A DNA stretch of 64,000 nucleotides from a virus (IMGVR_UViG_3300008117_000049:71337-135336); one strand, 5' to 3'; positions 8,513 through 45,800 are shown, counted from the first letter of the stretch. Numbers and translations are program-made. The notes: a model not told the origin generated them from the sequence alone.

Positions 8513-8518
8513 TCTTGG

Positions 8519-16507: not shown

Positions 16508-16527
16508 ACCCCGCTATTTAGTAGCAA

Positions 16528-16556: not shown

Positions 16557-16675
16557 TTTTTACACATAAACACCGATTTATGTGGGTAAAATATTACCTA
16601 TAACTGAATATGTATTGGGAGAACCAAAACAAACAACGACCAAGTACTAACTAACAAGGAAAGGTAGGTCGCCTA

Positions 16676-17257: not shown

Positions 17258-17398
17258 AGATAAACTTCAGGAACTCCCCGTCAGAAATGGCGGGGATTTC
17301 TCCTTCCTGGGCCGCCATTTTTTCTGTGCGTTTCCACTTGACAATGGGAATAAATTCCTATAAGTTTTAGTTATTGAATACATACCGAAAGGATTCAA

Positions 17399-23002: not shown

Positions 23003-23065
23003 CATCTCCATCCACTGGGCAAGTTTGCCTGGGTTGCCATTTTTTCTGTGCATTACAATAGATTC

Positions 23066-24457
23066 ATGGCCAAATCTATAATGGAACAAATCGCTCTTCT
23101 GCCTGATGCAGAGAGAGCACTCGTCTTATCTGGCATGGATGCCGATACTCTTATGTGGGATTGGTCAGTCTGGGGCAGACCTGAACAGCACGCTCCCGTA
23201 GGTGATTGGGCAGTCTGGATGTATCTTGGTGGTCGTGGTGCTGGTAAGACCCGTGCCGCAGCCGAGTGGGTGAGAGAGCAAGCCAAATACACTAACACGG
23301 GTCAAAGGCGTTTTGCTTTGGTTGCGAGAACAGCAGCAGATGTGCGAGATGTAATCGTTGAGGGTGAGAGTGGAATTATGAATGTATCTCCACCTAGCGA
23401 AAGACCATTGTATGAACCATCAAAGCGAAGACTAACTTGGCCTAATGGAAATACTGCTACTTGCTTTACTGCCGATGAGCCTGACTCTTTGCGTGGTCCA
23501 CAATTTACTCACGCTTGGGGAGATGAGATTGCTGCTTGGCGACAGACACCTGACGCAGCAGGTATGACTGCTTTTGATAACTTGCGTGTAGGAACTCGTC
23601 TTGGTCGTAATCCACAGATTATGGTTACTACTACACCTAAGCGTGTTCCATTGCTCTACAAGTTGATAGAAGAAAGTAAGAACACTGGTCGTGTAGTTAT
23701 CACTCGTGGTTCTACTCTTGATAACTCTGGAAACCTAAGCGTTGCTTATCTTGATGCTATTACGGGTGTCTATGCTGGAACTCGTCTTGCTCAACAGGAA
23801 CTTTATGGTGAGATGTTGGATAGCGTTGAGGGTGCTTTGTGGAATGATGATTTGATTGAGGTACATAGACAGAACGCTCTACCACTGAACACACCACTGC
23901 GTTGTATTGGTGTTGACCCTAGCGTTGCTGAGAACCCTAGAGATGAATGCGGAATAGTTGTAGTCGCATCAACTGGTGAGAGAGATTTGTATAAGCGTCA
24001 GGCTTGGGTATTAGAAGATGCTAGCGTGTTAGGTTCGCCTGAAGTGTGGGCTAACCGAGTAGTTGCTATGGCTCGCAAGTGGGGCTGTCCAGTTATTGCT
24101 GAAGTCAATCAAGGTGGAGCATTAGTTCGTAATGCTATCAACGCCATTGACCCTAGTATCAAAGTATTAGAAGTCCATAGCAAATACGGAAAGCAACTTC
24201 GTGCTGAACCAGTCGTGCTTGGCTATGAGCAAGGGCGTGTCCATCACATTGGATACTTACCTGACTTAGAGAGTCAGATGCTAAGTTGGGTTCCGGGTGA
24301 GGGTAGGTCGCCAGACAGAGTAGATGCTTTAGTTCACGCTCTTACCGCTCTTATGATAAAGCCACCAGCAGGGTTTGTAGGTGGCAAACTAACTGCTAAG
24401 TCTATGGCTGGTCGTAAAATACCAGATGCTAGAAGTAGTTTCTTTAGAGTTAGATAA
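23066..24457 (+). CDS. terL: Terminase large subunit
   Basis: GGRGAGKT, LRGPQ, WGDE, TTTP, nuclease GVDP and SPDRVDA. Confidence 0.95.
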   Translation: MAKSIMEQIALLPDAERALVLSGMDADTLMWDWSVWGRPEQHAPVGDWAVWMYLGGRGAGKTRAAAEWVREQAKYTNTGQRRFALVARTAADVRDVIVEGESGIMNVSPPSERPLYEPSKRRLTWPNGNTATCFTADEPDSLRGPQFTHAWGDEIAAWRQTPDAAGMTAFDNLRVGTRLGRNPQIMVTTTPKRVPLLYKLIEESKNTGRVVITRGSTLDNSGNLSVAYLDAITGVYAGTRLAQQELYGEMLDSVEGALWNDDLIEVHRQNALPLNTPLRCIGVDPSVAENPRDECGIVVVASTGERDLYKRQAWVLEDASVLGSPEVWANRVVAMARKWGCPVIAEVNQGGALVRNAINAIDPSIKVLEVHSKYGKQLRAEPVVLGYEQGRVHHIGYLPDLESQMLSWVPGEGRSPDRVDALVHALTALMIKPPAGFVGGKLTAKSMAGRKIPDARSSFFRVR

Positions 24458-27157: not shown

Positions 27158-28984
27158 TTGGGCGTTTTCAGGCGTGATAAATCACCCGCAACAAATACTC
27201 CACAGCGTGGTATTCGTGCTTCTAATCCAGTAGCGAATACTCTCCCTGCTAACTCTGTTTTTCTAAAACCAGTTCCTAACGCTGCCCCGTCTGCCCCTTA
27301 CAACGCACCTAGAGCATTGACCGCTGCGGCTGCTCAACTAAAAATTGGCGACAAGTCCGAAGCCGAGCAATTCAAAAATCGTAGGGCAGCAGCGTCGTCT
27401 GCTTGGCAATCAGAAGCGTGGGAATACTACGACGCAATTGGTGAAATCAAATACGCTTTCAATCTTGTTGCTAGCGTTGTTTCTCGTATTCGTCTTTATC
27501 CAGCAGTAGTTTCTAATCCCGCTGAAAGCCCAAGTCCAATTAGAAATGTTGAAGCCTTTGACCAGCGTATTGTCGCTGCCGCTGAGCGTGCTCTAGCAAG
27601 ACTTGATTCAGCGTATGGCGGTCAGGCTGGTCTGCTAAAAGACGCAGCACTAAATCTCCAAGTAACTGGTGAGTGCTACCTAAGTCAAATTCCTCAACGC
27701 CCTTCAGATGGAACTCCAGAGTCTTGGGATATTCGTTCCGTTGATGAAATCACAGTTGATAGCAGAGCAAATGTTGTTATCAGTCCTAGACGAGAACTAA
27801 AGACCGCTGGTGGTGGAACTCAAAAGGGCGTTTATGTTTTGCCGAAAGGTGCGTTCATTGGTCGTATTTGGAAAGCACACCCACGCTTTTCCGAAGAAGC
27901 CGATTCATCAATGCGTGGAATTTTAGACTTGTGTGCTGAACTTCTACTTTTGAACCGCACATTCCGTGCAACGGCGCGTTCCCGTCTGAACGCTGGTGCG
28001 CTCTATCTGCCTGACGGTCTTTCGGTTGCTGCTAACCCAGACCCAGATTTCCCATACACAGATGCCGATGGTATCTACGACGGCCCTACTCCAGAGGAGT
28101 TGGAAGACGAATTTGAAGACCAACTTATGGATGCTATGACAACTCCTATCAAGGATGAAGATTCAGCGTCTGCCGTTGTTCCGTTGATTATTCGTGGACC
28201 TGCTGAACTTGGAGATAAAATCAAGCAGTTCAAGTTTGAGCGTTCATTTGACCCTGCTCTTGCTCAGCGTGCTGACCGTGTTCTTGAAAGAATTCTTCAG
28301 GGTCTAGATGTTCCAAAAGACATCGTTACTGGTCTAGCAAATGTGAAGTATTCAAACGCACTTCAAATTGACGAGGCTTTGTACAAGGCTCACATTGAGC
28401 CACTGATGTTGCTTATCGCCGACGCTCTTACAGTTGTCTATCTACGCCCATACCTACTTGCTAACGGATTTACCGAGCCAGAAGTAGAACGCATTGTTGT
28501 TTGGTATGACCCATCACAGGTTGCTACTCGCAATGACCGTGCCGCAGATGCGGACAGCGGTTTTGAGAAGATGGCAGTTTCGTTTGAGACTTGGCGTAGA
28601 GCGCACGGTTTCTCCGAAGCAGAGGCACCAAGCCCAACTGAAGTTGCGTTGCGTTTGCTTGTTGAAAAGGGAATGATTACTCCAGAACTTACTGAAGCAA
28701 TGCTTGGTGTTGTTGCTCCAGATGTTATGGAGAAAATCCGTGCTTCAGCACAGGCAGCACAGCCAACTCCAGCAGTTCCGGGTCTAGACCAAATGCTTCA
28801 GGGCGGTCCGCCACCTGAAGGTGGAGAAGCACCACCCGCTCCAGAAGAAGCACCACCTGGATTAGCAGAGCCAGGAGTAACCGAAGAAAGTGCTCCAGTT
28901 CCACCGACAGAAGAAGTCGCACCGCCACAGCCTATCGCTCCGTCAGACGCTACTCCGCCAGGCCTAGCCGAACCTACTCAGTAA
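27158..28984 (+). CDS. Portal protein
   Basis: Position after TerL, 608 aa, WQSEAWEYYDAIGEIKY as in actinophage portals; TTG start with RBS aaggag. Confidence 0.85.
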   Translation: MGVFRRDKSPATNTPQRGIRASNPVANTLPANSVFLKPVPNAAPSAPYNAPRALTAAAAQLKIGDKSEAEQFKNRRAAASSAWQSEAWEYYDAIGEIKYAFNLVASVVSRIRLYPAVVSNPAESPSPIRNVEAFDQRIVAAAERALARLDSAYGGQAGLLKDAALNLQVTGECYLSQIPQRPSDGTPESWDIRSVDEITVDSRANVVISPRRELKTAGGGTQKGVYVLPKGAFIGRIWKAHPRFSEEADSSMRGILDLCAELLLLNRTFRATARSRLNAGALYLPDGLSVAANPDPDFPYTDADGIYDGPTPEELEDEFEDQLMDAMTTPIKDEDSASAVVPLIIRGPAELGDKIKQFKFERSFDPALAQRADRVLERILQGLDVPKDIVTGLANVKYSNALQIDEALYKAHIEPLMLLIADALTVVYLRPYLLANGFTEPEVERIVVWYDPSQVATRNDRAADADSGFEKMAVSFETWRRAHGFSEAEAPSPTEVALRLLVEKGMITPELTEAMLGVVAPDVMEKIRASAQAAQPTPAVPGLDQMLQGGPPPEGGEAPPAPEEAPPGLAEPGVTEESAPVPPTEEVAPPQPIAPSDATPPGLAEPTQ

Positions 28985-28993: not shown

Positions 28994-29467
28994 ATGCATC
29001 AGAAATTAGCAGAACATCTAGCAGTATGTTTAGCCGATACGGTTACATACAAGTTCATTGCTCACGGCTATCACTGGAATGTGAAAGGTCCTGAGTTCAC
29101 TCAGTTTCACGACTTCTTCGCAACACTTTATGAAGACGCTGATTCAGCAATTGACCCGTTAGCCGAGAATATTCGCAAACTTGGGTTTGACGCTCCATTT
29201 ACTTTAGAAGACTTTGCTTCTCTAACTTGCGTTAGCGTAAATCCAGTTTCAGGCGACCCGATTGAAATGAGTAGCAATCTATACGAAATAAATTGCCACC
29301 TTAAAGAGTGTTTAACAAAAGCGTTTGATATTGCCAACGCTTGTAATGAACAAGGAATTGCCAACTTCCTAGCAGAGCGTATTGACCAACACGCTAAGTG
29401 GGTTTGGCAAATAGGCACCACTATTGGTGCTGACTCAACCGTCATAACCAGAATCGAGTTCAAGTAA
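28994..29467 (+). CDS. dps: Dps/ferritin-like protein
   Basis: HWNVKGPEFTQFHDFF..LYE...DPLAENIRKLG. Confidence 0.92.
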   Translation: MHQKLAEHLAVCLADTVTYKFIAHGYHWNVKGPEFTQFHDFFATLYEDADSAIDPLAENIRKLGFDAPFTLEDFASLTCVSVNPVSGDPIEMSSNLYEINCHLKECLTKAFDIANACNEQGIANFLAERIDQHAKWVWQIGTTIGADSTVITRIEFK

Positions 29468-32400
29468 TGAGTGAATACGAAAACTTTGACCCTGTTGATG
29501 AAATAAATAAAATCATTGAAGGTGCCGACAGACCTGCTCTTCCATCTGTTTATGTGAAGAAAGATAAAACAAATGTTGTCATCGAAGGTACTGCTTTAGT
29601 AGCGTCAGCAAACAGCAAAACTCTTCCTAGCCGTAGAGTTGGAAGATTTGAAATGCTTGAAGTTCTAGAGCGAAGTCTCAACAGAACAGTCACCAATTTC
29701 AACAACCCCTCTCAAAGAGCGTTTACCGCAATGAGAGAATTATCAGACTTTGTGAATATGGCAACTACTGGCGCACAGCCAAAGATTGCTGGAGAACACA
29801 GAGACCTACTTCCAGTAGGACACCCCCTATCAACCAGACCAAACGACTTTTCTGAGGAAGAGTTGGCTCAAGCCCGTGCTGAGTGGATGTCGGCAGACCC
29901 TAGAATTGCCGAAGAGTTCCGCCCATTAGTCGCTACTGCTTTTGTTACACCAGAAGAGAGCGTAGAGCGTGAGTATCTAATAGCAAAGTTGGAAGCAACT
30001 AACGCTACCCAAGTACCAAGGGATATCATCCTCGGCTTGACCGCCGCTGGAAACCCTTACGCTGGGGGGAACTCTTTTTTAGCACGAAGCGCCAGGGCTA
30101 GGGCTCAGCGCCGCGACAGAAGAGGTCGCTTTGCTTGGATGGGCGGTGGAGCCAGAGTATGGCTCGGAAAATTATTTGACGCAGTATCTTCTTTGTTCAG
30201 ATTTGCTGGATACGACGCAAAAACAGATTCGTTTGACCTAGAGGGCGTTCCAGGTAGCCCTTACTTTGGAAAAGTTATTAGCGTTCCCGCTTCACAAGTA
30301 GAAGCGATAAAAGCAATTCTTCCAGACAGTTTAGGGTTGCCAGAGCCACGCTCAAAGAGCGTTGCTAAAAATTTAATTGTGGACCCAAGCACTTTACAAC
30401 TAAAAGATGCTCCAACTGGTTGGGAAAAAGTTTCTAGCGAAAACGGCGTTGATGTTTTCCGTTCCGCTGATGGTTGGATAGCAACTCGCTATCCTAACCT
30501 TGCCTCAGCACCAAAAGAGAGTAGCATCACTCGTACTCGTGGTGCTAATTCTGATAAAAGCATAAATCCAGACCTACCCGTTTATCACATTGCCCAAGGT
30601 TCCGCTGACGGAACGGTAGTTGATAAGCCATTTGCCGTGGCTCAGGGGTGGGGTGACGCTCAGGCGTTGATTGCTCGCTATGATAAGAAACTTTCTCCTA
30701 GCAAAAAGAAAGCCGAATTAGATGAACCACAAGAGCAAGGATTTATAAAAGGCTGGAAAAAGCAAGAAAGAGGCTACATACCAGCGGATTATAATCCTTA
30801 CGGATACTACGCTGGGGGCAGAGATGTCGCTATGGGAAACGATTCTTATACAGACCCTAGTGGCCGATTTATTGCTGTATCTATGGCTCCTAAAAAGCAA
30901 GAGCAAGCCAAAAATGTTAGAAAGCAAGTTCTTGAAAGTGGGAAGCCAATTGAAACTTTTGACGGTGCTAAAGACTGGGATGGCGATGTAAGCAATTTAT
31001 GGAGACTTGAAAGAGTAAGAAGCGACGGTAAAAGAGAGATACTTGGCTACTACCAAGATACCGAAGACATTGAGCGTGATACTGAAATTCCAAAAGACCT
31101 AGAACAAGGACAAGATTTCTACGAAGAAATAATTGCCAACACATTGCAGTGGGGCGGAAACTCGGTTGATTTTGTTGATGGAAGTAATCCAGACCAAGGA
31201 TATTTAGTTGCTCACGAGGCTGATGTTGTGCAACCAGATGGAAGCGTAAAAAAGCGTGAGCAGTTAGTTACTCCAGAAGACTTTATGGACCCAATCGAGG
31301 GGCCAAAAATTCTTCGTGCTTATGCTTTAAAAAACCAAGAAAAACTTATGGAAAAAGGTTTTTATCTTGGAACTTGGACAGACATGGTTGAGGTGAAAGA
31401 CGAAAATGGAAATGTAATTGACAAGAAAGAAATGGTCTTTCTAGATGTCAGTGAGTGGATAAAAGATTTTGATGATGCATTTGACGCTGGAGAAAAACGA
31501 GGCGAAATTGCTATTTTTGGTGCCTCAGAGGGCAAGAGTTATTACATTGAAGTTGAAAAGCGTAGAAGAGAAACAATACGAAATACTCCAGTTCTAGATA
31601 AAGAAGAAGATAAAAGAGTTAGGGAAGAATCCGACAGGATTACAGATGAAGAAAATAAGTGGTTTAGAGATAATTATGCAGTTTGGCAAAACTTTGAGCG
31701 TGATACTGGAATAGGATTTTTTAAAGACGACGGTTCTCCAAATCCAGAAGTAGCAAAAGTAAGTCCAGAAATTTATGAACACCTAAAACGCAGAGACGAC
31801 GCTGAAAAAAATAGAAATTCTGTATTCCAAAATTACATTCGTTCAGTTTTTGAAATGGCTGACGGTATGGACCCGGGCGGGAAAAACAACGGACTTGCTG
31901 TTAATCAAGGTTTATTAGACATTAGAGATAGGTATGTCGGCGACGATGAAGCAACTCTAAAGATGAACGCTGGTCTCCGAGAAGGTCAGGTTGCTAGTTC
32001 TAAAGTAAAAAGCGTGGATAGGCTTGTAAATAAATCTAAATTAAAACAAAACACCGTGCTGTATAGGGGGGCTTGGCTAGACCCTGAGTTGGTAAGTCAA
32101 ATAGAAATTCAGGACTCTTACTTTGACAGAGGTTTCCAGTCTTCTGGACTAGATGTAGACACCGCAACAAGTTATTTAGATTTTAGAGCCGAAAAAAGTC
32201 AAGGCAAAGAAAGAGTTGTTTTTAGAATTCTTGCTCCGCAGGGTATGAATGCTATACATGTTGGCGACGATGAAGTAATTATGCGTCGCAATACAAAAAT
32301 GACTATAATTAGAAAAACTAAGTTAGATGACACAACATACATTGATGTGGATATCGAACCTCAAACAAAGGAGCAAATAGATGTCAGACTCCAAGGACTC

Positions 32401-35400
32401 GTCAAAGGGCCACGACCTGAATCTAGTGAAAGTCCCGGAGAACTTCTCCCAGATGACGGAGGAGGAGCAGATGGCTTGGGCGAAGGAGGCCCATTCGAAG
32501 TTAATTACGCGCCTCTCCCCACCACAAGACCAGACTCAGAAAGAGTAACTGACCCACAACTAGCAATTTGGCTAAGACTTTCTAAAGATGTACTGGGAGT
32601 AAGTCTAAACGGCATAATTGACGAGGCTATTGCTATAAATCAAAACAATGACCCAGAAAAACACTTGGCTAAAAGGCTAAAAGCAAATGTTGCTAAATCT
32701 CTAGCAGAAAAACTCAAGGATGTTGACGACAAAGAGTTTGTAAGAGTATTAGATGATTTGGGGGTGTTCTCTGGACTATCTAAACACATGGACTGGTCTG
32801 AGCCTAAAAAACTTCAAGAAGTAATTTTTTATAGTCTAGATGCAAGAAAAGAAGTTGGTGTAAACCTTAGAGCAGAATTTGCTAATGTCTTGAGATGGGC
32901 TACGACAAATAATGATTTTTATAGAGAACAGAAGGAACTCGTTGACAAAATTAATTCTACTAAAGAGGTAACTCTTGAAGAAGCACGACTAATTCTTGAT
33001 GCCTATAATGAAAATGGTCGATTAGGCGGATTTACTCTTTTCAAAAATCTTATTCTTCCAGACAGTGATAATAGAGAATTTTTAGATGCTGTTAGGTATA
33101 CCGCCGTTTCAAGCCTAGTTAGTCGATGGGCATCCACATCCAACGGTTCGCATGTTTCGTCTCTTGCTATTCAAGAAGTGGCTAGAAGACAGTTTGGCAT
33201 TAGAGGTTCAGCCGAATGGAATAACGGAATCGGTATGGAGATACAGGTTAAAGATGTTGCTGACAAAAACAGAAACTTGATTGGAAGATTTTTACAAGCC
33301 CAGTATGACCTCACTCAAGAATATTTCAAGAAAAAGGGTATATCTAAAATAACTCTCTATCGTGGAGTCAAAAACTTCAAGGCTCACGATATGCCAAAGA
33401 CCACTTCCTCAACAGAAAATGGCATTTCAGGAGCAGTAAGACTAAGACCTTTATCATCTTGGTCGACTTCAGAGGGGGTAGCAATTGGGTTTGCTAGGGG
33501 AGAAGACGGAAGAGTATTCCGTAAAGAATTTGATGTAAAAAACATATTTTCTATGCCAGGCTTTGGTAATGGTTGTTATGAAGAAAAAGAAATGGTAGTT
33601 CTAGGTGGAGTTGTAGATAGCGTTGATATAGGAACCTACAGTGTTCTAAACACTCGTGGAGAAGGTAGTCCAGTCAAATACCCATCTCCAGAGCCACAAG
33701 CCATTACTTACGAATCTCTTCCAAACTTACTTCCAGACTTGGGATTAGAAGTAAATTACGCTCCTTCGCGCCGTGACTCTAGACTACTAAACGACGCAGA
33801 AAGAAATGAAATTGCGCGACACCACCCAACAGAAGCAATTTGGGTATCAATTGCCGAAGACTCCACTTTCCACAAAAGGGAGATGCCACTTACTCTAAAA
33901 AATTCATTGGAATTCCACGACAGAGAGGCAATTCGCACTGGTCAAATAGGAACTGGTCCTATGGGCGAGGGGACCGTAGAACTAGCAAGGGCTTTGAAAA
34001 AGGGTGTGGCACAAAACCTTGAAAATAAAATGTCTTCTGTTGAAGCATCGGAGTGGGCAGAAACAGCAAATCTTTTCAAAGACTTGGGCATAGTCGTCAA
34101 CTTTCCTAATGATGAAGAGAGCAGTCAATATGGAGTTGTAAGAGCACTTATTAGTTCTTGGGCTTTTACTTCAAACGGCGACGAGCCTTTATCTTTAGCA
34201 ATTCAAGAATTAGCCAAAAAAGAATTTGGAATTGAAAAGGCGGCTGATTGGGAAATTAGCCCAGAGAAACAAGTAAAAGTAGATAAAATTTTAGAAACTA
34301 GCGAAAACTTAATTAGAAAGTTTCTAAGGGCTCAATACGACCTTACTCAAGAATATTTCAAGCGTAAGGGAATAAAAAAACTTACTTTGTTCCGTGGAGT
34401 AAAGAAATTTAGTAACCACGAAATTGTAGAGTCTACTTTTCCTAACGGTGGAAAATTTACCGCAACTTTGGGCCTTAGACCGTTATCGGCTTGGACTACA
34501 AGCAGAAGAATTGGAACAATTTTTGCCAACCGCTACGAACAAAGTAGGTTGTTCCGCAAAGAGTTTGATGTAAAAGATATATTCTGTTTCCCTGGCACTG
34601 GTTTTGGTTGCTTAGATGAAAGAGAATTTGTTGTTCTTGGTGGAAACACTAAAGGCATAGATGTCTCTAGTCAAAGAGATATGAGCCCATTAGGAGGAAT
34701 GAGTGATGCTTTTAACTTTGAAAACAGGGCAGCCAATTATCAAGTTGTATTTGATAGCGATGTTGAAAGTCCGCTAGACCAAATTGCTGAAAGTGGATTT
34801 AGACTTGGCGAATGGGTTAACTATGCTCCTGAAAGACTTATTCGGCCAGAAAGAGACGCAGTTGCTGACATAACCTCGTTTGACCCCACAGACGAGATAC
34901 CTAATTCTCCAAAAAATGCTGGCGGAATGACACGAAACACTTGGTGGGCGTGGGAGAGAGGTCCTGACGGAAATCAATTCATTGACTACATGCGTCAACA
35001 GGCTTGTCGTTTAATTGGACTACCAGTTCCAGAAACTGAGTTTGATAAGGGCAAGGGAAGCCACTTTATGCTCCAAAGAGGCTGGGGTGCTCCGGGCGAA
35101 AAAGCCATAAAGGGAATGGTAAATGCTATTGCAAATGGTCGCCCTCAACCGCCACTATATCGTGGGTTGGCAAACGGATATGGCGAAAACGCTTCTACTC
35201 CAGAATTAGAAAGACTAAGAAGCGTTAGAGAGGGCGATACGGTTGATATGCCACTTGCTTCTGCCACGCGCTCACCCGGAGTTGCCACTTGGTACGCAAC
35301 TAATAGGGGCACAGATAGGGGTCCTATAATTCTAAAAATTAGAGAAGGTGCTAATGGAGTGTCTCTCTCTAAAACTAACTCATTCTACCCGCACGATTAC

Positions 35401-38400
35401 GAAACTGTAGTAAACGGAAAGTTTAGAGTAGTCGGCAACCAAACCGTTCTTACTCCAGTTTGGTCAAGAGATTATGTAAATATTTTTGACACTGAAGACC
35501 GCCCAGCAGAGGGTATACCAATTCTTCGTGGGCAAGTACCAGAAGATTTGCTAAATGAAATACGAGAAGCATTGATAAAAAATCCAAAAGACGATTTATC
35601 ACGCTTCAACACCGATACGTTGAAATTTACTAACGACAGAAATAGAAGCAAATACTCCATTCCAATTTCAGTTTGGATGTTGAGCGAACCAAAAGAAATT
35701 CAAGTAATTGAGTTGGAACAAGAAAAAGTTTATAGCATTGACGAAAACAAGCCTGAATCTAAAAATGACCAGCCAGAAACATACGAAAATGTGGAACCAT
35801 TTTTTGCCGAAAAATTAGAGGCTAATGCTGAAAAAGCGCCACTTGACTCTCCAGCAGAAGGTTTTATAGTAAGTTATGCCCCACTAAATCTAACTGGTCC
35901 TCAAAAATTAGTAAGTTCAGATGTCCCAGAACCTAAAATAACTGGTCCTCAAAAATTAGTAAGTTCAGATGTCCCAGAACCTAAAAAATACGGAAAAGAT
36001 TTAAAAAAGCGCGAACAATTATTTAAAAAATATGAAGAAGCAGAAAATAAGTTAGACAGAGCCAGAAAAGAGATTTTAGACAAAGAGCGCGCGGCGAGGA
36101 GGGCTAACGGAGGTGCCTACCGACCACTACCGTATAAGTACGATATGGATGAAAATGGCAGATTAGTGCCTAATCCTCGTCTTATAGACGAACTAGGAAG
36201 AAAGTATTTTAATTTAGTTCAAGACTTGGCTGATTCCATAAACGCTCTGAGAGATTTTGATAAGAAATTTATTGAAAGCAAGTTTGAATTATCTGTTGGC
36301 GGAGTTATACCAAATCCGCCGTCAAGGACAGAAATTACAAGTCCGGGAGATATTTGGCAAGGACTAAAAAATGTCAGAAAAGAATCGTTATATGCCATAG
36401 GCGACTGGGGCGCAAGTGAGACATCAAGACAGGTACTAGCCAGCACAAGAGGTAGTTATGTCTATAACAAGAGTATGAAACCTGAATTTGTTTCTAGAAT
36501 TTCTCCACTAATATCTCAATCAACTTTAAAAGAAAATACTCAACTTCACAGAGGCGAGTGGCTACCAGAAAATATAGTTGACGCTGCCGAAGTGGGAGAC
36601 TCAATTTATTTTGACAATATACAGGAACTGAGTTTGTTATCTGATGTGCCTAACAAACAATTGCTTCGCAGGAACGGCGACCAATTAGATAAAACCTATT
36701 ATTTCAACAAAGGCAAAAAACCAGTGGTTCTTAGATTGAACTGCCCTAAAGGTATGAATGCTTTATATACAAAAAATCAAGCAGACGAAAGTGAAAACTT
36801 TAGCGATATTGATGCTGGAAGAGATAGAGAAGACGCTATGGTGCAAGCAGTTCTTTTGCGCCCAGATGTAAAAATGAAATTAGTAAGTAAAACCGAAAAA
36901 GACGGAGTTACTTACCTTGAGTTTGATGTAGAGCCAAAAACAAAAGAAGAAATTGAATCAAATAAAAGTGGCTTAATCAAAAAAGACGGTCAAGTAGTAG
37001 AACAAATAATGCCACAACCAGAGGACCTTGGCGCATTAGAAACTCCTGAAGGATTTATATTAGGCAACGACGCTCCGATAGAACCAGATAATAGATTAGT
37101 AGTAAATTACGCCCCTAAAAACAAAAATAAAGGCGCTGGTCTTGCTAAAGAAGTTGAAAGAAGACAAAAATTAGCGGAAGCACAAAAAAAGATACAAGGA
37201 GAACTTAAAGAAAAGCAAGAAAAAGAAAAAGAAATTCTTAAAGAAAGGATGGAGGAGCAAAAAGAAGAGTTAGCACAAAAAATTCCAGAAATTGCTCAAA
37301 TGCTACCGTCGTCTCCACAAGATTTACTTGACCCTAATCAGCCGTTAAATATTTTGGGCTCTACAGACATTACTCAAGAAATTTTTAATGTGCCTGGCGG
37401 TGACGACCCAGAAAAACCAAACTCAATTCAAATTTTAGAGCCTAATCAAGTTTGGAAAGATTTAGTTTCAACAATGGAAGCATTGGGTTCTGCTGCTTCT
37501 GATGATATTGAAAATCAAGTAAATGAAAAATTTGCTGAAACAATTAAAGATTTAAATGCTCAAAAGAAGCAAGTAAAAGCGTCTAGAGATGAAGCAGAAT
37601 TAGGATTAAGAACACTAGAAAGAGCAGCCCAGCAGTTAGAAAACTCAGCAATTCTAAATAATTTTGGGGCTAATAACAGTCCTGTGCGACAAAGTATTAT
37701 AGATACGGCTTTAAGTTATATCAATGACAAATATTTTTTAAAAGACCCTAACGCCCCAGATTTGGTTTGGAATAGTGATTTTGGTGCTTTTGCTCAGTGG
37801 GCTGTAAAAAAGAGATATCCAAATATATCGAAAGACGAAGCCCTCACAAAAACATTGGCATTATTAACAGCCGCCAACTCTCACTTAATTGAAATTGCAA
37901 AAATGCCAGACTCTGCTCAAAGAGACGCAGAAGTAAAAAAAGTTATTGCAAAAATGATGTTAGGAACTTACTTTACTCAAACATGGGAATCATTTTTTGA
38001 TGCCGCGCATAATTTAAATGTTACTAATAACCCGAACTCTGCGGCTTGGGAAGCGGAATTGTCCGAAATTATTGGCAATAATCCAATACCTGATTATAAC
38101 CAACTTGCTAGGAATTTGTTTAATAAATTAGAAATTTATGAAGATAATAAAAAGAATTACAAAAAAGCAATAACAGATTTTTCTAAAAAGGTGCATGATG
38201 AAATAATTAAACCAAAATTAGAAGAGTTAGGAATTGTTTTTGGCCATAGTGTCACTATAGAACCAAGAGAAATAAACTATGTTGGAAAAGGTTCCCTTGG
38301 TCATGATGCGAATCGTAACCCCGTTTTTGTTCCTAATCCTTCAATTCGGGCTACTGGTGATTTAACAGATGCTAGAGGGTATGCTTCTATTTTGACTGAA

Positions 38401-39204
38401 GCAATACAAACCTTACCTTACCCGATTGCTTTGCTAGTAAAAAACTTTATAGCAAGTAATGATGTTATATTTTTTGCCACAGATAGAGGAAATTTTAGTT
38501 ACCTGCCTAAAGATAGGAGTACCTATAGTTTATCGGGCAATCTTTCGCCGCAAGATGCGTTTATGTCACTTGGTCTAGATGGGCCAGATGAAGATGATTC
38601 AAGTGGCAGACCGATACCGGGTAGTGGTAGGAAAAGGGCAGTGAGCGTTGCGGCACATGAACTGACTCATATGATGATACAAGCATTATTTCCAGAACTT
38701 AAGCCAGCGGAGTGGGCTGTTTTGGCTCGTTTTATAACCCAAAGGGATGCTAACGGAAATCTAATTCAAAATCTTGTAAACGGAAATCTTGGAGACACGG
38801 TTTTGAGCAGTGAAATAACTAATCTTACACCAGCAAGTTTGCTTGCATTATTAAGCAACGAAGAAGTGTCGGTTTTTGCTCCTGAAATTTCCACTCCTTA
38901 CTCTACGCAACATCAAAAAGGTTCTAAAAAAGTTGGTGGAGTTCGCGGGCTAAATCCGTTTCTTCATGGAGAGTTTTTCTCAACTCTAACTCAAGCCATG
39001 TTTTCGGGGGACCCGACCATTATGTATCCAGGAAATCTTGTTAGTCCTGGAGATAAACTTAGAGTAGGTTTTAACGCAGACGGAACACCTAAATACTTTA
39101 CTATACCAGATGGTCCGATTTTTAATGCTGGTGCCTTGCCAGTGGGTATAGTATTATCTTTATTAATGAATGAATTAGCAAAACAAAAGCAAGGAATACC
39201 ATAA
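29467..39204 (+). CDS. 3245-aa polyvalent head-module protein: five ADP-ribosyltransferase-like domains and a C-terminal HExxH zincin
   Basis: L(Y/F/H)RG motifs with S-x-S/T and E motifs at about 32.0, 33.3, 34.4, 35.2 and 36.5 kb; HELTH at 38656; V(N/S)YAP separators. Confidence 0.8.
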   Translation: MSEYENFDPVDEINKIIEGADRPALPSVYVKKDKTNVVIEGTALVASANSKTLPSRRVGRFEMLEVLERSLNRTVTNFNNPSQRAFTAMRELSDFVNMATTGAQPKIAGEHRDLLPVGHPLSTRPNDFSEEELAQARAEWMSADPRIAEEFRPLVATAFVTPEESVEREYLIAKLEATNATQVPRDIILGLTAAGNPYAGGNSFLARSARARAQRRDRRGRFAWMGGGARVWLGKLFDAVSSLFRFAGYDAKTDSFDLEGVPGSPYFGKVISVPASQVEAIKAILPDSLGLPEPRSKSVAKNLIVDPSTLQLKDAPTGWEKVSSENGVDVFRSADGWIATRYPNLASAPKESSITRTRGANSDKSINPDLPVYHIAQGSADGTVVDKPFAVAQGWGDAQALIARYDKKLSPSKKKAELDEPQEQGFIKGWKKQERGYIPADYNPYGYYAGGRDVAMGNDSYTDPSGRFIAVSMAPKKQEQAKNVRKQVLESGKPIETFDGAKDWDGDVSNLWRLERVRSDGKREILGYYQDTEDIERDTEIPKDLEQGQDFYEEIIANTLQWGGNSVDFVDGSNPDQGYLVAHEADVVQPDGSVKKREQLVTPEDFMDPIEGPKILRAYALKNQEKLMEKGFYLGTWTDMVEVKDENGNVIDKKEMVFLDVSEWIKDFDDAFDAGEKRGEIAIFGASEGKSYYIEVEKRRRETIRNTPVLDKEEDKRVREESDRITDEENKWFRDNYAVWQNFERDTGIGFFKDDGSPNPEVAKVSPEIYEHLKRRDDAEKNRNSVFQNYIRSVFEMADGMDPGGKNNGLAVNQGLLDIRDRYVGDDEATLKMNAGLREGQVASSKVKSVDRLVNKSKLKQNTVLYRGAWLDPELVSQIEIQDSYFDRGFQSSGLDVDTATSYLDFRAEKSQGKERVVFRILAPQGMNAIHVGDDEVIMRRNTKMTIIRKTKLDDTTYIDVDIEPQTKEQIDVRLQGLVKGPRPESSESPGELLPDDGGGADGLGEGGPFEVNYAPLPTTRPDSERVTDPQLAIWLRLSKDVLGVSLNGIIDEAIAINQNNDPEKHLAKRLKANVAKSLAEKLKDVDDKEFVRVLDDLGVFSGLSKHMDWSEPKKLQEVIFYSLDARKEVGVNLRAEFANVLRWATTNNDFYREQKELVDKINSTKEVTLEEARLILDAYNENGRLGGFTLFKNLILPDSDNREFLDAVRYTAVSSLVSRWASTSNGSHVSSLAIQEVARRQFGIRGSAEWNNGIGMEIQVKDVADKNRNLIGRFLQAQYDLTQEYFKKKGISKITLYRGVKNFKAHDMPKTTSSTENGISGAVRLRPLSSWSTSEGVAIGFARGEDGRVFRKEFDVKNIFSMPGFGNGCYEEKEMVVLGGVVDSVDIGTYSVLNTRGEGSPVKYPSPEPQAITYESLPNLLPDLGLEVNYAPSRRDSRLLNDAERNEIARHHPTEAIWVSIAEDSTFHKREMPLTLKNSLEFHDREAIRTGQIGTGPMGEGTVELARALKKGVAQNLENKMSSVEASEWAETANLFKDLGIVVNFPNDEESSQYGVVRALISSWAFTSNGDEPLSLAIQELAKKEFGIEKAADWEISPEKQVKVDKILETSENLIRKFLRAQYDLTQEYFKRKGIKKLTLFRGVKKFSNHEIVESTFPNGGKFTATLGLRPLSAWTTSRRIGTIFANRYEQSRLFRKEFDVKDIFCFPGTGFGCLDEREFVVLGGNTKGIDVSSQRDMSPLGGMSDAFNFENRAANYQVVFDSDVESPLDQIAESGFRLGEWVNYAPERLIRPERDAVADITSFDPTDEIPNSPKNAGGMTRNTWWAWERGPDGNQFIDYMRQQACRLIGLPVPETEFDKGKGSHFMLQRGWGAPGEKAIKGMVNAIANGRPQPPLYRGLANGYGENASTPELERLRSVREGDTVDMPLASATRSPGVATWYATNRGTDRGPIILKIREGANGVSLSKTNSFYPHDYETVVNGKFRVVGNQTVLTPVWSRDYVNIFDTEDRPAEGIPILRGQVPEDLLNEIREALIKNPKDDLSRFNTDTLKFTNDRNRSKYSIPISVWMLSEPKEIQVIELEQEKVYSIDENKPESKNDQPETYENVEPFFAEKLEANAEKAPLDSPAEGFIVSYAPLNLTGPQKLVSSDVPEPKITGPQKLVSSDVPEPKKYGKDLKKREQLFKKYEEAENKLDRARKEILDKERAARRANGGAYRPLPYKYDMDENGRLVPNPRLIDELGRKYFNLVQDLADSINALRDFDKKFIESKFELSVGGVIPNPPSRTEITSPGDIWQGLKNVRKESLYAIGDWGASETSRQVLASTRGSYVYNKSMKPEFVSRISPLISQSTLKENTQLHRGEWLPENIVDAAEVGDSIYFDNIQELSLLSDVPNKQLLRRNGDQLDKTYYFNKGKKPVVLRLNCPKGMNALYTKNQADESENFSDIDAGRDREDAMVQAVLLRPDVKMKLVSKTEKDGVTYLEFDVEPKTKEEIESNKSGLIKKDGQVVEQIMPQPEDLGALETPEGFILGNDAPIEPDNRLVVNYAPKNKNKGAGLAKEVERRQKLAEAQKKIQGELKEKQEKEKEILKERMEEQKEELAQKIPEIAQMLPSSPQDLLDPNQPLNILGSTDITQEIFNVPGGDDPEKPNSIQILEPNQVWKDLVSTMEALGSAASDDIENQVNEKFAETIKDLNAQKKQVKASRDEAELGLRTLERAAQQLENSAILNNFGANNSPVRQSIIDTALSYINDKYFLKDPNAPDLVWNSDFGAFAQWAVKKRYPNISKDEALTKTLALLTAANSHLIEIAKMPDSAQRDAEVKKVIAKMMLGTYFTQTWESFFDAAHNLNVTNNPNSAAWEAELSEIIGNNPIPDYNQLARNLFNKLEIYEDNKKNYKKAITDFSKKVHDEIIKPKLEELGIVFGHSVTIEPREINYVGKGSLGHDANRNPVFVPNPSIRATGDLTDARGYASILTEAIQTLPYPIALLVKNFIASNDVIFFATDRGNFSYLPKDRSTYSLSGNLSPQDAFMSLGLDGPDEDDSSGRPIPGSGRKRAVSVAAHELTHMMIQALFPELKPAEWAVLARFITQRDANGNLIQNLVNGNLGDTVLSSEITNLTPASLLALLSNEEVSVFAPEISTPYSTQHQKGSKKVGGVRGLNPFLHGEFFSTLTQAMFSGDPTIMYPGNLVSPGDKLRVGFNADGTPKYFTIPDGPIFNAGALPVGIVLSLLMNELAKQKQGIP
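32381..32548 (+). CDS. Putative overprinted 55-aa protein in the +1 frame of the giant ORF
   Basis: AAGGAG 7 nt before ATG; MSDSKDSSKGHDLNLVKVPENFSQMTEEEQMAWAKEAHSKLITRLSPPQDQTQKE. Confidence 0.5.
   Translation: MSDSKDSSKGHDLNLVKVPENFSQMTEEEQMAWAKEAHSKLITRLSPPQDQTQKE
35891..35985 (+). repeat. 48-bp-period in-frame tandem duplication
   Basis: TGPQKLVSSDVPEPK twice, identical at the DNA level. Confidence 0.95.
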
Positions 39205-39831: not shown

Positions 39832-42800
39832 ATGACCTACTATAACTCTTTCGGTATAGAGTTTGAATGTGACGAAACCCAAGAAGGTTTAGTAGCGGCA
39901 GGTAATCGCTGGACATCTGGCGGAAACTCCACCCTTGCTCGTCGTGCTCGTGTAGCACTTCAAAGGCGTGACCGTTATGGTCGTTGGGCCGAAATGGGTG
40001 GCGGTATTTCGTTCCCTGGCCGTTTAGGAAACGGAACTATTGAAAAATTTGTTGGTCGTTATGTCGGTCCCGCTGAACGCCCAGACTATATGCGGGTCTA
40101 TGTCACAGAGGCCAGAAGACCGGGTATCTACGAAGTCCCTTCCCGAGTTGCTACGGTTGCTAAGGCACTTCTAAGCAAAGAAGCACTTAAAGATGTTGGC
40201 GTAAATCTAGATGTTAACGGAAACCGCGTTGGCGAAATTCTTGACAGAGACATTGAGTTTATTGACCAAATGTGGAAAGGCAACAAGCCTACCGATTTTG
40301 AACTTAGTATGGCTCGTGGCGAAGTATCAAAGCCAGAAAAAAGAGTTATTGAAAAGGCTCGTCTAAGAGCACCTAAGCACAAGTCCTACAACATTGTTGA
40401 TGAAAAAGGCAACAGGATTGATAAAGACGAAGAGCCAGCAAAACCAGATGTAAAAAAGCCTAGCAAAAAGGCTAAGCCAGCCGAAAAGTTCCCAGTTCCA
40501 GACACAAGCCAGTGGGATGAAAAACGCCAAAGCAATGATGTTTGGTATGAAAAAGACGGTAAGCGTATTCCAGATGAAAGACTAACTGAAGCCGATAAAA
40601 CTCCAGAAAATAAAAGAATTTATATTCGCGAAGGGGAAAAAGGCGAAAACGACAAAATTATTGATGGAAATGGAAACTTAATTGAGTTTAAGCCTAGTCT
40701 TAAACCAGAATCTAGTCCAATTCCAGAAAAACTTCCAGAGCATGACCCAGAAGAGGGTTTTTGGAACAAAGCCAGAGTAAGACGAGAAGAAGTCCGTAAA
40801 AATTTAAAGACTCCTCAAGAAATTTACGAAGAATTATATAACGGTGGTTTTGCTGAAGCAGATTTAGACAAAGCAATAGCAGCCTGTGATTATGCGCTTA
40901 GTCAGCAGAAGTACTTAGGTAGAGACGAAAACCCACTATATGCGTCAAATCCAGATGACCCAAGACTTAGACACATAGCAAACTTACTTGAGTCCCTACC
41001 AGAGTGGCAAGAATACAGAATTAAGCGTGCCATAAATCTTAGATTTATGAACGAGGAAAATATTGATGAACTAAAGGCTTGGGTAGATGGGAAAATAGAG
41101 CCCGGCTCTCCGTTATCACCAGAAGATATGGTTGAACTTCACCGTAAGTTTAGGAATCTTGCGGTTGACATAACCAACCTAAGAATTTCTGGAGAAGATG
41201 CTTTTAGCAACGACAACCTCGGTGCTGAGCGTATCAATATGCCACAACTTGATGAAAAAAACCTGCCTCTATTTTTACGAGACATGGCAAGAATTGGTGT
41301 TGGTCACCGATACACAAGAATGATGCCAGACCAATTACACCCTGTTCAAATGGAAATGGACATGGGCGATATTGCCAAGATTGCTGAGTCTTGGAAAGAC
41401 ATTGAGTTATTCAATAAATTTAACCCACACGAAAACCCAATTGTTATATCAAGAGATGGTTATGTTCTTGACGGACATCACCGCTGGGCTGCTGCTTGGC
41501 TAGCCCAAAAAAGAGGCGACAAACTTGCCCTTAAGGGTCTAAAAGTAGTTCAACTTGACATAGACCACGAACAAGCATTAACGATTGCTAACGAGTGGAA
41601 CGACTACGCTGGAATTCGCAGGATAACCGTTGGTGGTAAGGATGTTAGAGAGCCTAGACCACAAGCCCCAGCAGTTCCGCAAGCCACTTCTAAAATTACA
41701 TCACCGTCTGCTACTCCAGATTTGCCGCGTGTTAGCCCTCAGCCAGATTTAGTAGTAAATTATGCTCCTTCCGACGACAATTTGTCCACCCCAAGCGGAG
41801 AAAACTTTAAGAGTTTTCTTGACAGGGAACTGGCAAATGTCGGCGACAAAATTATTCCAGACTTTGGTGACCGACTCACAGAAGATACTCCCAACCCAGA
41901 GGATAGGAATAGCCCGTTCCCTGGCTCTCGCACAGTTGTAAATAATCTTTTGAAGTATAGAGACTCAATGATAAAAGCAATGAAAGAGAGTGCTTTAGAC
42001 CAAGACCAAGAAAAATTTAGATATCAATTTGAAATTGCTAAAAGAGTCACAAAACTTTTAAATCAAATACACGAGAATTTTTCTAACAATAAGAATTATG
42101 CTGCCGATACTGAATTATCAATTAGTACTAGCAACCCAGAAGAAAAACTAAAAACAGTTAGAGTTCTTCCAAACACTGTTAGATATGGTACCGACAACAA
42201 TGGTATTAGAAAAGTTCAGTACTTTGAAGCAATAATTATTGCTAAAAATGGAAAACCTTACATGGTTAAGTGGACACCAGACCACTCTCACGCCCACAGC
42301 ATCGACAAAAACGGAATTGTAAACGACAGTAACGATGGTGGAGGTATTTCATTTAACGGTGGACAAATGTATGACGAAATTGTTGATGGAAAACCAGTAC
42401 CTAGAATTGCCAGTGTTGGTGGGGCATTTACTAACGACGGACACCACGCTTTAGGTTTAGCAAGTGCTCACATAAACCTAATTAGGTGGGTACAAAGCAT
42501 GTTTGGCGGAAGGCTCAAGCATAGTTCAAACTTAAGTGCTAGAGGAAACCCATACTCAAAGATGGTTTCTAGAGACATGCGTTGGCACGACAGAAGTCAA
42601 GCAGACAAGGCAGTTCATATGAGTTGCCCAAACGCTACTATTTTTAAAGTCCTCAAAGATATGGGATTAATTAGCGGTGAGTATATTCCAGCAACCCCTG
42701 GAGCAAAACAAGATGATGACACTCCGGGCGGTTACGGGGCTCACAGCGGTGGGCGCGGTTGGCTAAGAAGGCTCACATTTACCAACAACTCTGGTTACTC

Positions 42801-45800
42801 AAGTAATGTATCTGTCTTAACAAGTTATAGCATTAACGATGAGGTCAGGGCTTATGACGGAGAGTTCTTAAGAAAAACTCCAGAAGAACAACAAGCGATA
42901 CTTGACGCTATGCCTCCAATTTTTAGAGATTTCTTTGCTGGAGATAGGTCTAGAGATAGCATAGGCCGAACCGCTGATTTTGATGTTCAATATAAAATAT
43001 TGGAAACTGCTTATGCTGACGGAATGAAGCAACAGGAAGCAGTAGATTTCCTAGACAGTTTAATTACTGGGCTACCAGAATTAGATAGAGCATTTGGCAG
43101 AAATGCTGACCACAGAGAGTTGCTTAGACGCTTAAAGCAACTAAGAGATGGAATTAGTATTGGATTTTGGAACCAAAGCGACAACAATTACAATAGGCCA
43201 AAATCTTTTGACCCAAACAGTATTAGAGCAATTGAATCTCCATTTGCTGGCTACTTTAAATTTAATGATTGGGTTTTGCCAAGAGATGTAAATAGAGTTC
43301 TAAACGATTTACCATTTAGTGCTAGACCACACAGAGGAGGCTGGTCAAAACCAGATGGTTGGACAGAAGAGCCACAAGCACTAAAAGACCTTTACGGTCC
43401 AGAAATTTTGCTTGCTTCCTTGCGCGACGCTCTTTTGAACAAAAAAGGTAAATCTGCCAAACTTCCAGACATTAATGGGGAAGAAAATACCGTTGACCCA
43501 ACAGCAGTCTATAAAGCACTAGAGAATAACGGATATGACACAGAACTAATTCTTGCTGGCATTTACGATGAACTAAACGGCAATTCGGTAAATACTGAAA
43601 AGTTGTTAGCAAAAAGACAAGAACTTGGAAATCTGCAAGGCATCATAGAAGAAATAACTAATGAAATAGCAGATGTAAAGGCTCCAATAGAATTTTCTAG
43701 AATTGGCGGAGAGTATGACTCAGAAAGTAAAGTTCTTCAGTCTGACCTAGTTAGGCGTGGAGAAACTGGAGAAATTCCTACAGCACTCCAATTAAGACCA
43801 CTTTCTTTGGATAACGAAGCATATGATTATCTAGGTCCAACTGGTGCAAGAACTCAAGTAATTCTTTCTCAACATCACACTCCAGAAATATCAATGTCTC
43901 GTTATTACATTGATGGAGTATCAGACAACCCAAAGGTTATTGCTAGAAACTTTAACCCAACTGGCCTAAGAAATGCTCTTATTGACTCAGTTACAAAGAA
44001 TAATTACGCTGTAAAACTTAGGTACCCTAACGGACAGACCATAGATGTTCCAAACAATGCTATTCGAGATGCTTTACAGTACCAAGGGTATGACATAAAT
44101 ACCGTTTTAAGAGAAGAACCTAGTCTAAAACCTAAATTAAAAAGAATTAGTAGCGTTTCTGACAGGGAGAACGCAGACGGTAATGGCACCAGAATTAGCG
44201 AGTGGGCCATCTATAATTCAAGTGGCGAAGAAATTAGACTAAACGGTCCTGGCATTAGACAAAAGAGGAACGACACCACAGGGGAACACGAGTGGGATGT
44301 AGTTGATTTATCTAGTCCGCAAGATAACAGAACAATAGTTGCCAAATTAGCAAAAGTCAAGAAAAATGACGAAGGCAACTACGAAGTTTGGGTGGCAAAT
44401 AGAGCCGACAACAAAACAGATGAATTTTCTGGAGAACCTAGCGGTGTTTATGAAACCTTACAAGAGGCTTTGTATGATGTTAAGAACCACATCTCAGACG
44501 ATGCAAATATAGATGCATCTACCAACCTGCTAGGCCAAGGAAGAGCGCCTACAGTTAGTAACGGTTTTGCTATTGTTGGTGGAGCAAATGATGAGGCAGA
44601 AGTTACCGTTGGTGATTTAACATTACAAAGACCAGACGGTGCTGAAAGTTTTGTTGTTTTCTCTAACGGTGCTGGAACTGGCAGATTTAGAAGAATTTCT
44701 ACTGCTCGTATTGAAAACAACACAATTGGCACGGTTTATACCGCAGAAACTTATTCCGTAGGAGAAGATGGCGGGAAAATTGAAGCCTTTGATTTGGTCA
44801 GAAAATCTTTCATAGGCTCTGACCCAGTTAGAAAACAAAGAATTTATGAGATTGCAAAAACTAATCGTGGATTTGAACTTACAACTCACAAATATCATCC
44901 AGATGAGGGTGGCGTAACTAGGACCGAAACACTTGTATTTGATAATTACGAAGATGCTAAAGACTATGCCAATAAAAAATTATTGGCTGGTCATATAGGA
45001 TTACCTGGAGAGAAAGTATTTCCTAATCTTTCTGTCAGACAAGAAAGAGTTCCTGCTAGTGCGGATTTGTCAAATCAAAACATATTCCAAGACAACTCTT
45101 CTATTCAAATAAATACTCCAGTAAAAATGACTGACGGAGTTAAAGGTCTTTTAAAAATCAATGTTAAGAAAGGTGCTCACCCTACTTGGAGAAACGGCGA
45201 GGACAATCAACAGTATGTGTTTGCTGAATTTAGTTTTGGCAATGAGCCAGACGAACCTCTTATCACTGGTAAAATTACTAGAACTGGAGTAAGACAGTGG
45301 GTAACTGTTTCCTCAACAAATTCACCAAGTTTTAAAGAACACGCAATAAGTTCAATATTAAGAAATGGTACTTTCTTTGCTAACAGTAAAGAAGAGGCTT
45401 TTGAAAGCCTAAAATACAGACTTGAAGAATCATTTGGCATAACTAATCAGCAAAGAGCCGACGGTCAGTCTGTACTACCTAGAATCAGACTTGTAAATAG
45501 GGCTGTTAAACTTGAGCCACCACCGCCACCGCCAGCCCCAGAAGATAAAAGCCTTTTTGCAGATGGCGTTTTTGACGACTTCCTAAGAGTTAGAAATACC
45601 CCGCTTGATATTACTGGTGCAGAAGATAAAGGCGGTATGGGTCTAGGACAATCTGGTTCTAGAAAATATGAATTACCAGATGGTAGAAAGTTTAAAGTAA
45701 AAGATGAGGGCGCTAGAAAAGCAGCGTCTGAATCACTGAACCATGCTCTACATTTAGCACTTGGAATTCCAGCAACTGAAGCAAGAACTGGAAAAGCACC

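Follow-up and report, generated by a model that had tools for sequence, protein, structure and literature searches.

Phage genes embedded out of frame within larger genes are known. In phiX174, gene B lies inside gene A and gene E inside gene D, overlaps that have been explained by compression of a 5-kb genome. Here, we describe an open reading frame (ORF) of 55 codons that lies in the +1 frame of a giant virion polyprotein gene, in the linker right behind its ADP-ribosyltransferase (ART)-like domain ART1, in the freshwater phage IMGVR_UViG_3300008117_000049. All positions are counted on the window, i.e., the whole stretch of 64,000 nucleotides (nt) of this phage that was analyzed. As with the phiX174 overlaps, the dual coding is out of frame and synonymous change is suppressed in the host frame; unlike them, the nested gene belongs to a phage of 135 kb, in which space is not evidently short. 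Comparison of six related loci reveals that both frames are kept by selection, with true dual coding over ~165 nt, and the nested ORF is very probably a real, separately translated protein-coding gene.

The embedded spanin genes Rz/Rz1 of phage lambda (PMC5295617) are alike in layout, with a whole small gene within a larger gene, in the +1 frame and on one late mRNA, and with constrained parts of one reading placed over tolerant, linker-like parts of the other. Unlike Rz/Rz1, the nested gene here is no lysis gene, as its product appears to be a soluble acidic helix with no lipoprotein signal by eye; its host is the spacer of a 3245-aa effector polyprotein, stand-alone relatives of it exist, and an interaction of the two products is only putative.

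The immunity genes of MuF-type toxins are separate downstream ORFs. MuF toxins, carried on phage head proteins, have been described as polymorphic toxins with protective immunity proteins (PMC5576092). The present arrangement resembles these pairs in that a toxin-like enzyme domain of a head-associated multidomain phage protein has a small gene directly after it, but the small gene here is out of frame within the continuing toxin gene, it does not co-diversify with ART1, and both binding and neutralization are putative. A third comparison is with the polyvalent proteins of phages and conjugative elements, which contain many effector domains, including ARTs, in a polypeptide presumed to be processed into separate units (Iyer et al. 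2017, PMC5512222). The host gene appears to fit this picture, with multiple effector-type domains, including ARTs, a zincin-type HExxH motif, and a probable association with the virion. It differs from that description in its second-frame gene, as the main text of the paper (PMC5512222) does not use the words "overlapping," "frameshift," or "linker." In the available portion of the literature on nested genes in polyvalent or virion proteins, no description of such a gene was found; thus, while embedded out-of-frame phage genes are known, this setting, the linker of a polyvalent virion protein, was not found described there.

Dual coding in the linker behind ART1

The ART1 domain, with an apparently C3/Vis-like ADP-ribosyltransferase fold, occupies positions 31759 to 32379 on the + strand and ends in ...DIEPQTKEQI. 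The nested gene follows on the same strand from 32381 to 32548, its ATG at 32381-32383 and its TAA at 32546-32548, in the +1 frame relative to the giant ORF of 29467 to 39204, since (32381 − 29467) mod 3 = 1. A Shine-Dalgarno (SD)-like AAGGAG at 32368 to 32373 (+ strand) stands 7 nt (caaatag) ahead of the ATG, and a +1-frame stop, TAG at 32378 to 32380 (+ strand), abuts it, so that the ATG at 32381 is the earliest possible start in the nested frame. The first-pass annotation of this DNA had proposed an overprinted small gene here on the strength of AAGGAG-N7-ATG, a 55-codon +1 ORF, and an amphipathic core, and each of these was located at its exact coordinates, the core VPENFSQMTEEEQMAWAKEAHSKL being found in the translated nested ORF. 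The main-frame translation across the same region is GPRPESSESPGELLPDDGGGADGLGEGGPFEVNYAP.

The most constrained core, ATGACGGAGGAGGAGCAGATGGCTTGGGCGA, at 32453 to 32483 (+ strand), reads MTEEEQMAWA in the +1 frame and DDGGGADGLG in the main frame. The conserved linker DGGGADGLG is at least partly the shadow of MTEEEQMAW; hence, conservation of a linker can reflect another frame and not the linker itself. The main-frame module-boundary motif VNYAP, at 32500 to 32514 (+ strand), overlaps the end of the nested helix (KLITRL). The nested gene is present in a single copy in this phage. As had been claimed at the outset, no equivalent start exists after the paralog ART5: the +1 frame there is rich in stops, and the same holds behind the three remaining V(N/S)YAP linkers; such an ORF is thus seen in one of the five linkers.

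Within this genome alone, the nested ORF is not beyond chance, and it is the comparison of relatives that makes the case. The giant ORF contains six same-strand alternative-frame ORFs of at least 40 aa, including another of 55 aa and one of 60 aa, and when the main frame was shuffled among synonymous codons, this ATG and its open frame were retained in 2.7% of 20,000 trials. Stops in the +1 frame are few in a hydrophilic linker because such a stop requires T at position 2 of the main-frame codon. Given the main-frame protein, the chances of an ATG with an open frame at the six loci compared below were 0.027, 0.074, 0.026, 0.091, 0.155, and 0.039, and their product is ~3e-8 if independence is assumed, the loci being only roughly independent.

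The six-locus set comprises the window, L016, L021, L012, L005, and L015, with ART1 identities of 45-86%. An alignment-based scan of IMG/VR yielded four loci, two of which were found again in a metagenome scan, and 15 stretches matched a degenerate pattern built on the main-frame motif that immediately precedes the ORF, 5 of them in the family, including the new and more divergent L015, and 10 unrelated. In all six loci, ART1 lies upstream of the nested ORF, the ATG stands directly behind a +1 stop, and the frame remains open for 55-57 codons (57 in L012) to the same module boundary. Stops breaking the +1 frame in homologs had been named as the outcome that would speak against the gene; the frame is open in 5 of 5 relatives. 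The six nested peptides share 20 invariant columns, including VP.NF..MTEEEQM.WA, and in the core at 32453-32483, a single G/A difference, synonymous in the +1 frame, is seen among five of the six loci.

Compared to the main-frame product, the +1 product is better conserved in 14 of 15 pairs, the exception being the window and L005 (0.52 versus 0.56). The main-frame motif VNYAP occurs as VNY or INY in four of the six loci and as INNSP in L021, and it is lost in L015, along with most of the main-frame similarity in the 3′ half, with the +1 protein retained. The module 3′ of the nested stop also varies: it begins with RVTDP..AIW in the window, L016, and L005, with RVGSPRKDIF in L021, and with RELESFDP in L012 and L015. 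The nested gene and ART1 are passed on as a single unit, and it is the module downstream of them that is exchanged.

Synonymous divergence (pS) in the main frame over the ORF, pooled from the 15 pairs, was 0.21, compared to a mean of 0.648 (standard deviation, 0.051; minimum, 0.505) for 652 upstream segments of 61 codons, giving a z of −8.4. When measured in segments of 30 codons, the dip, with pS of 0.10-0.23, was found at alignment columns 710-750 only, starting at the ATG and ending before the stop; pS was 0.41-0.45 in segments partly overlapping the ORF and at least 0.47 in those clear of it. Synonymous sites of the upstream flank are near saturation (pS, 0.47-0.78). At columns with one degenerate amino acid common to all six loci, the choice of codon also agrees in 11 of 13 cases inside the ORF versus 33 of 175 upstream (Fisher p = 2e-6).

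Changes were also sorted by codon position. Variable columns at main-frame positions 1, 2, and 3 number 36, 24, and 22 of 54 inside the ORF and 337, 264, and 495 of 569 upstream, so that the fastest-changing position inside the ORF is main-frame position 1, i.e., the wobble position of the +1 frame (position 1 versus position 3, p = 0.012; pattern inside versus upstream, p = 0.004). The ratio of nonsynonymous divergence (pN) to pS over the ORF was 1.33 in the main frame, 0.43 in the +1 frame, and 0.83 in the +2 frame, with 0.42, 1.09, and 1.23 in the upstream control. Along the +1 frame, pS and pN were 0.31 and 0.21 in the N-terminal third, 0.55 and 0.13 in the core, and 0.70 and 0.40 in the C-terminal tail; in the core, the main-frame pS was 0.11 and the +1 pN/pS was 0.24. 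Constraint in the +1 frame is thus strong in the core, moderate in the start-proximal part, and weak in the tail.

The main frame is constrained as well. With the nested protein held fixed and its codons redrawn, the main frame stayed open in 0.0-0.2% of draws under phage codon usage or 1-2% under uniform usage, and it is open across the nested gene in all six loci. The nested gene has a G+C content at third codon positions (GC3) of 0.62-0.74, compared to 0.29-0.43 for the phage, in keeping with what an open main frame requires, and this GC3-rich codon choice in turn accounts for the local rise of G+C to 0.48-0.57 over 32350-32549, against 0.33-0.39 in the flanks. As the third position of each frame is set by the amino acids of the other, codon usage cannot date the two frames. 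A small second-frame gene in the linker after ART1, as first proposed, is strongly supported by the ATG and frame in 5 of 5 relatives, the loss of pS, the +1 periodicity, and the stand-alone homologs described below. The "disordered linkers" of polyvalent proteins, as this locus illustrates, can hide genes that gene callers discard.

Stand-alone relatives and possible role of the nested protein

The predicted product in the window has 55 residues and is acidic, with an isoelectric point (pI) of 5.2 and a mass of 6.3 kDa (pI 4.7-5.3 and about 6.3-6.5 kDa among the six loci). AlphaFold2, given the six-row alignment, modeled one helix at residues 27-45 with a predicted local distance difference test (pLDDT) score of ~90 there and a mean of 72; the layout is a short extended stretch, VKVPENF, followed by the helix MTEEEQMAWAKEAHSKLITRL. 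A tryptic peptide of the product is VPENFSQMTEEEQMAWAK.

When 1.84 billion representatives were searched with a profile built from the six peptides, eight matches at E ≤0.001 were obtained. Among these are three free-standing proteins, 54, 52, and 50 aa long, in which the motif has the same location (E, 1.7e-4 to 2.9e-4), as well as the 140-aa P0014 and the proteins P0013 and P0015 discussed below. Alignment of the nested and stand-alone profiles by hhalign gave a probability of 98.7% over 39 columns at 38% identity, and a second profile search added another nine clusters (50-66 aa) along with one weak match. The stand-alone relatives P0019 and P0024-P0032 are well conserved among themselves. 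In the reciprocal direction, a search of IMG/VR with the stand-alone profile recovered nested ORFs only, with 3 of 3 confirmed from 201 stretches. By these profile comparisons, the nested product belongs to an uncharacterized family that also has stand-alone genes of 50-54 codons, a new small-protein family defined by the motif VP-x-N-F/Y-x-x-M/L-T/S-E-E-E-x-x-x-W-A. The nested gene is notable for being kept among relatives whose synonymous sites are otherwise saturated and for having free-standing relatives besides.

Other searches delimit this family. Neither the nested peptides nor their stand-alone relatives reached the cut-off of any Pfam, PHROGs, or NCBIfam family, and the sub-threshold matches to Gcn1_N, DUF6570, and RAP80_UIM were taken as helix noise; likewise, P0013 and P0015 (repeat or Glu-rich helical proteins) and the repeat protein P0020 were taken as motif-level noise. 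Foldseek on the one-helix model gave no match at E ≤0.001, and the best score of the nested peptide in the ESM Atlas, 0.77, is a lead only. No match was obtained among phages by tblastn with the nested peptide, among phages and plasmids with the stand-alone P0027, or in a word-index protein search with a single nested peptide. None of 13 stretches was confirmed in IMG/VR with P0017, and none of 48 and of 37 stretches in prokaryote genome contigs, the second pattern being blind to the LSEEERKQW subfamily.

Two larger proteins contain the motif. P0014, of 140 aa from an ENA metagenome, has two tandem VP..(M/L)T(D/E)EE...WA units behind a Lys/Pro/Ala-rich N-terminus, and the repetition suggests that the unit may be a reusable binding module. 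In L028, an unrelated 61-kb phage contig, a 205-aa protein encoded at 4920-5537 has the N-terminus YPDNWDEMSEEEQMAWKEKH with the motif of the nested protein (hhalign, 94.5%). The gene for this protein is in the position of a scaffold gene, after the head maturation protease and before the major head protein.

The identity of ART1 bears on the role. Its profile matched the Vis toxin (4xzj) among PDB sequences with an E of 0.0018, and Foldseek with an AlphaFold2 model of ART1 (pLDDT 61) retrieved C3bot and Vis (E, 2e-7; probability, 1.00) at a template modeling (TM) score of only ~0.4; the Pfam family ADPrib_exo_Tox scored 19.1 bits on ART1, under its cut-off of 23.4. When the ART1 region was used as a single query sequence against IMG/VR, five stretches were returned, none of them confirmed. 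Residues R103, S128, and E172 of ART1 are invariant in all six loci, in the contexts YRG, F(Q/S)S, and (D/N/G)EV; they are candidates for the catalytic Arg, Ser-x-Ser, and Glu, as judged by eye from the known motif. In ART5 (36900-37110), QAVLL stands opposite DEVIM of ART1, and the invariant Glu is apparently replaced (read by eye, not aligned).

The first-pass annotation had suggested an immunity gene nested inside its toxin polyprotein. In a broader form, in which the nested protein would be a trans-acting partner of the ART1 module, i.e., an antidote or chaperone in the producing cell, this is the likeliest single role, though we regard it with some doubt. It is favored by a start next to the ART1 fold, the nested gene beginning two codons after the end of the ART1 alignment, by the apparently C3/Vis-like nature of ART1, and by the missing ORF after ART5 and the other linkers; that the nested gene is fixed behind ART1 while the downstream module changes fits a cassette. 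For the new family, a partner of a C3-like ADP-ribosyltransferase is the first testable hypothesis. Complex prediction for ART1 and the nested protein scored 0.00 in both runs, which speaks neither for nor against binding.

Three observations count against a partnership with ART1. Toxin-immunity pairs usually co-diversify, but for L012 versus L005, identity is 52% in ART1 and 91% in the nested protein, and for L016 versus L005, the values are 48% and 77%; thus, no co-diversification is seen. Nor does a nested ORF follow the DRAT-like ART modules of this polyprotein. Finally, stand-alone relatives were not found in the IMG/VR, phage, or plasmid collections, and they may be cellular genes without a link to ARTs.

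The balance is even on whether the nested gene is real but its product unrelated to ART1, serving instead as a mimic or copy of a small host protein for take-over or as a head-assembly factor, with the linker merely tolerating a second reading. The lack of co-diversification with ART1 is what such a role would lead one to expect, and the stand-alone relatives, well conserved among themselves, are missing from the viral, phage, and plasmid collections, a hint that they are cellular; the 205-aa L028 protein in scaffold position shares the motif, and two copies of the unit in the 140-aa P0014 would suit a generic binding module. A role apart from ART1 does not, however, account for inheritance with ART1 across three different downstream modules, for a start no more than two codons past the ART1 fold, the usual site of immunity genes, or for the missing copy after the ART5 paralog.

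Whether the gene was "overprinted," i.e., born de novo in the linker, is uncertain; the existence of stand-alone relatives hints that, of the two readings, the small gene could have come first. Under a further proposal, which we consider rather unlikely, ART1 and the small gene would together be an absorbed toxin-antidote cassette, in which an older free-standing gene behind an ART gene was swallowed once the polyprotein read through it in a different frame, so that the small protein is the original reading and the linker the derived one. In the producing cell, the small protein would silence ART1 or keep it folded, and it would stay behind when the polyprotein is packaged and injected. If true, this would point to a general and unannotated rule, an effector domain with a nested partner in phage virion polyproteins.

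Translation start and competing explanations of the conserved nucleotides

On a long late mRNA, ribosomes would start independently at the ATG at 32381, in this phage with the AAGGAG 7 nt upstream, and would stop at the TAA, releasing the 55-residue acidic protein, while the main frame would supply a flexible Gly/Pro/Asp-rich spacer and the VNYAP boundary after the ART1 module. Other genes of the phage have AAGGAG or GGAG 5-9 nt upstream of their starts, and by this measure, the nested start in the window genome looks like a normal phage start. We infer independent initiation from an invariant ATG that directly follows a stop, from constraint that begins at this ATG, and from a length equal to that of the stand-alone relatives, with homology reaching upstream of two internal Met codons. 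Neither of these codons, M25 or M31, was accepted as the true start, since the stand-alone homology extends upstream of them and the positions are Leu or Lys in relatives. Translational coupling via short +1 mini-ORFs that terminate at the stop just ahead of the ATG was also rejected, as the mini-ORFs follow from the main-frame DVDV motif; furthermore, none ends there in L015, in which the sole upstream +1 ATG opens a two-codon ORF with its stop eight codons earlier.

Several points weigh against a separately translated gene. The six loci are few and kin by descent; the p-values above assume independent columns, and multiplying the per-locus chances overstates the case. The SD site is good in one locus only, being AAGGAG in one of the six, AAGGAA in two, and AAGAAG in three; since AAGGAG at 32368 is also the main-frame codon pair Lys-Glu (AAG GAG), the caution attached to the original proposal, that it may arise simply from these codons, was right. 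The + strand was searched for an internal promoter-like site and none was found, as the two sigma-70-like sites detected both face the other way, on the minus strand, and the closest GGAAK-N18-GTT is 1.1 kb further upstream. None of the listed sequencing runs containing the stretch is recorded as RNA, and the case for translation is drawn from sequence. Single stand-alone matches are modest (E, ~2e-4), and part of the stand-alone score comes from the Glu-rich helix, which also matched the repeat or UIM-like P0013 and P0015. Weighed together with the evidence for the gene, these points leave it unlikely that the nested gene is not real or not separately translated.

That there is no second protein at all, and that the region is a young, recently exchanged neutral segment at a recombination hot spot whose open +1 frame is a by-product of a hydrophilic, nearly unconstrained main-frame linker without T at codon position 2, is very improbable. 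Modules are indeed shuffled at these linkers, the chance of an open +1 frame given the main-frame protein is 5-30% per locus, and main-frame pN about equals pS in the region, as for a neutral young segment. Such a segment should, however, change equally at the three codon positions, which is at odds with the 36, 24, and 22 of 54 and the +1 pN/pS of 0.43 reported above, and its youth would leave unexplained the ATG right behind a stop in 6 of 6 loci, the stand-alone homologs, and L015 with its kept +1 protein and diverged main frame.

Even less credence is due to an RNA signal, in which the conserved nucleotides would be a structure or an internal SD-like run, GGAGGAGGAG, that makes ribosomes pause or lets translation of the downstream modules start internally. 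The run is invariant in five of the six loci, with a main-frame TTG 8 nt after the purine run, and a small hairpin at 32445-32466, pairing CTTCC (CTTCY) with GGAGG or GGAAG at alignment columns 96-100 and 111-115, is kept in all six loci; the hairpin might mask part of the SD-like run, which sits in both frames. On the other hand, the RNAalifold consensus is weak (222 columns; −11.7 kcal/mol; covariation term, −1.1; compensatory changes in 2 of 24 pairs), and a signal of this kind predicts neither ~150 nt of constraint from the ATG with +1 triplet periodicity nor the homologs that exist at the protein level.

Programmed frameshifting into the +1 frame, which would give the N-terminal part and ART1 an alternative helical C-terminus and no free 55-aa protein, is equally hard to credit, since the SD-like GGAGG run that resembles the SD-like stimulators of the dnaX and prfB frameshift sites, and the start-proximal SD that is weak in three of the six loci, are set against the conservation of an X_XXY_YYZ heptamer or a homopolymer run of at least 5 in none of the six loci (with a lone CCCAAAA in L005), a main frame without a stop or rare-codon pause here, constraint that sets in at the ATG, ahead of the purine run, and an ORF whose length matches that of the stand-alone proteins, which are homologous also before the purine run (LVKVPENF).

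The host polyprotein and the phage

The host gene, at 29467 to 39204 on the + strand, encodes the multi-module virion polyprotein of 3245 aa with ART-like modules, five V(N/S)YAP linkers, and a C-terminal HELTHM, the HExxH motif of which was read from the sequence by eye. Pfam DRAT matches residues 1278-1382 of the protein with an E of 6.2e-12, and 10 homologous protein clusters were found for the region of ART1 plus linker, the protein's own cluster at 90% identity having 25 members. The gene sits between the portal (27158-28984) and the major head protein (58305-60317), in a late structural block that runs from the terminase (23048-24457) through the portal, a small DNA-binding-like protein, the giant ORFs, the second of which spans 39832-52158 and encodes 4108 aa, and a 1757-aa ORF to head and tail genes.

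Relatives shuffle the modules of the giant protein exactly at V(N/S)YAP or VNNAP linkers, with protein lengths of 1991-3245 aa. The post-ART1 module of L012 and L015 (RELESFDP...NAGGMT) corresponds to the fourth module of the window protein.

The source virus record is complete, with 135,336 bp and direct terminal repeats. GenBank phages gave no match to the window stretch by blastn or tblastn. The stretch of 31500-33500 was found whole in 20 sequencing runs from 12 lake or freshwater studies of 2019-2024, six of the runs being labeled "fungus metagenome." Contigs from runs of two studies (2019 and 2024) are letter-identical to the window, so that the nested ORF is not an assembly error, and the phage is widespread and stable. 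Two raw-read runs placed 0 reads on the stretch, and with the contigs identical, there were no population variants by which to examine the phase of change. The motif GGAAK-N18-GTT occurs 23 times in the window versus 4.6 expected, a count reached in 0 of 100 shuffles, and 14 of the 23 matches lie on the + strand at 1078-17372.

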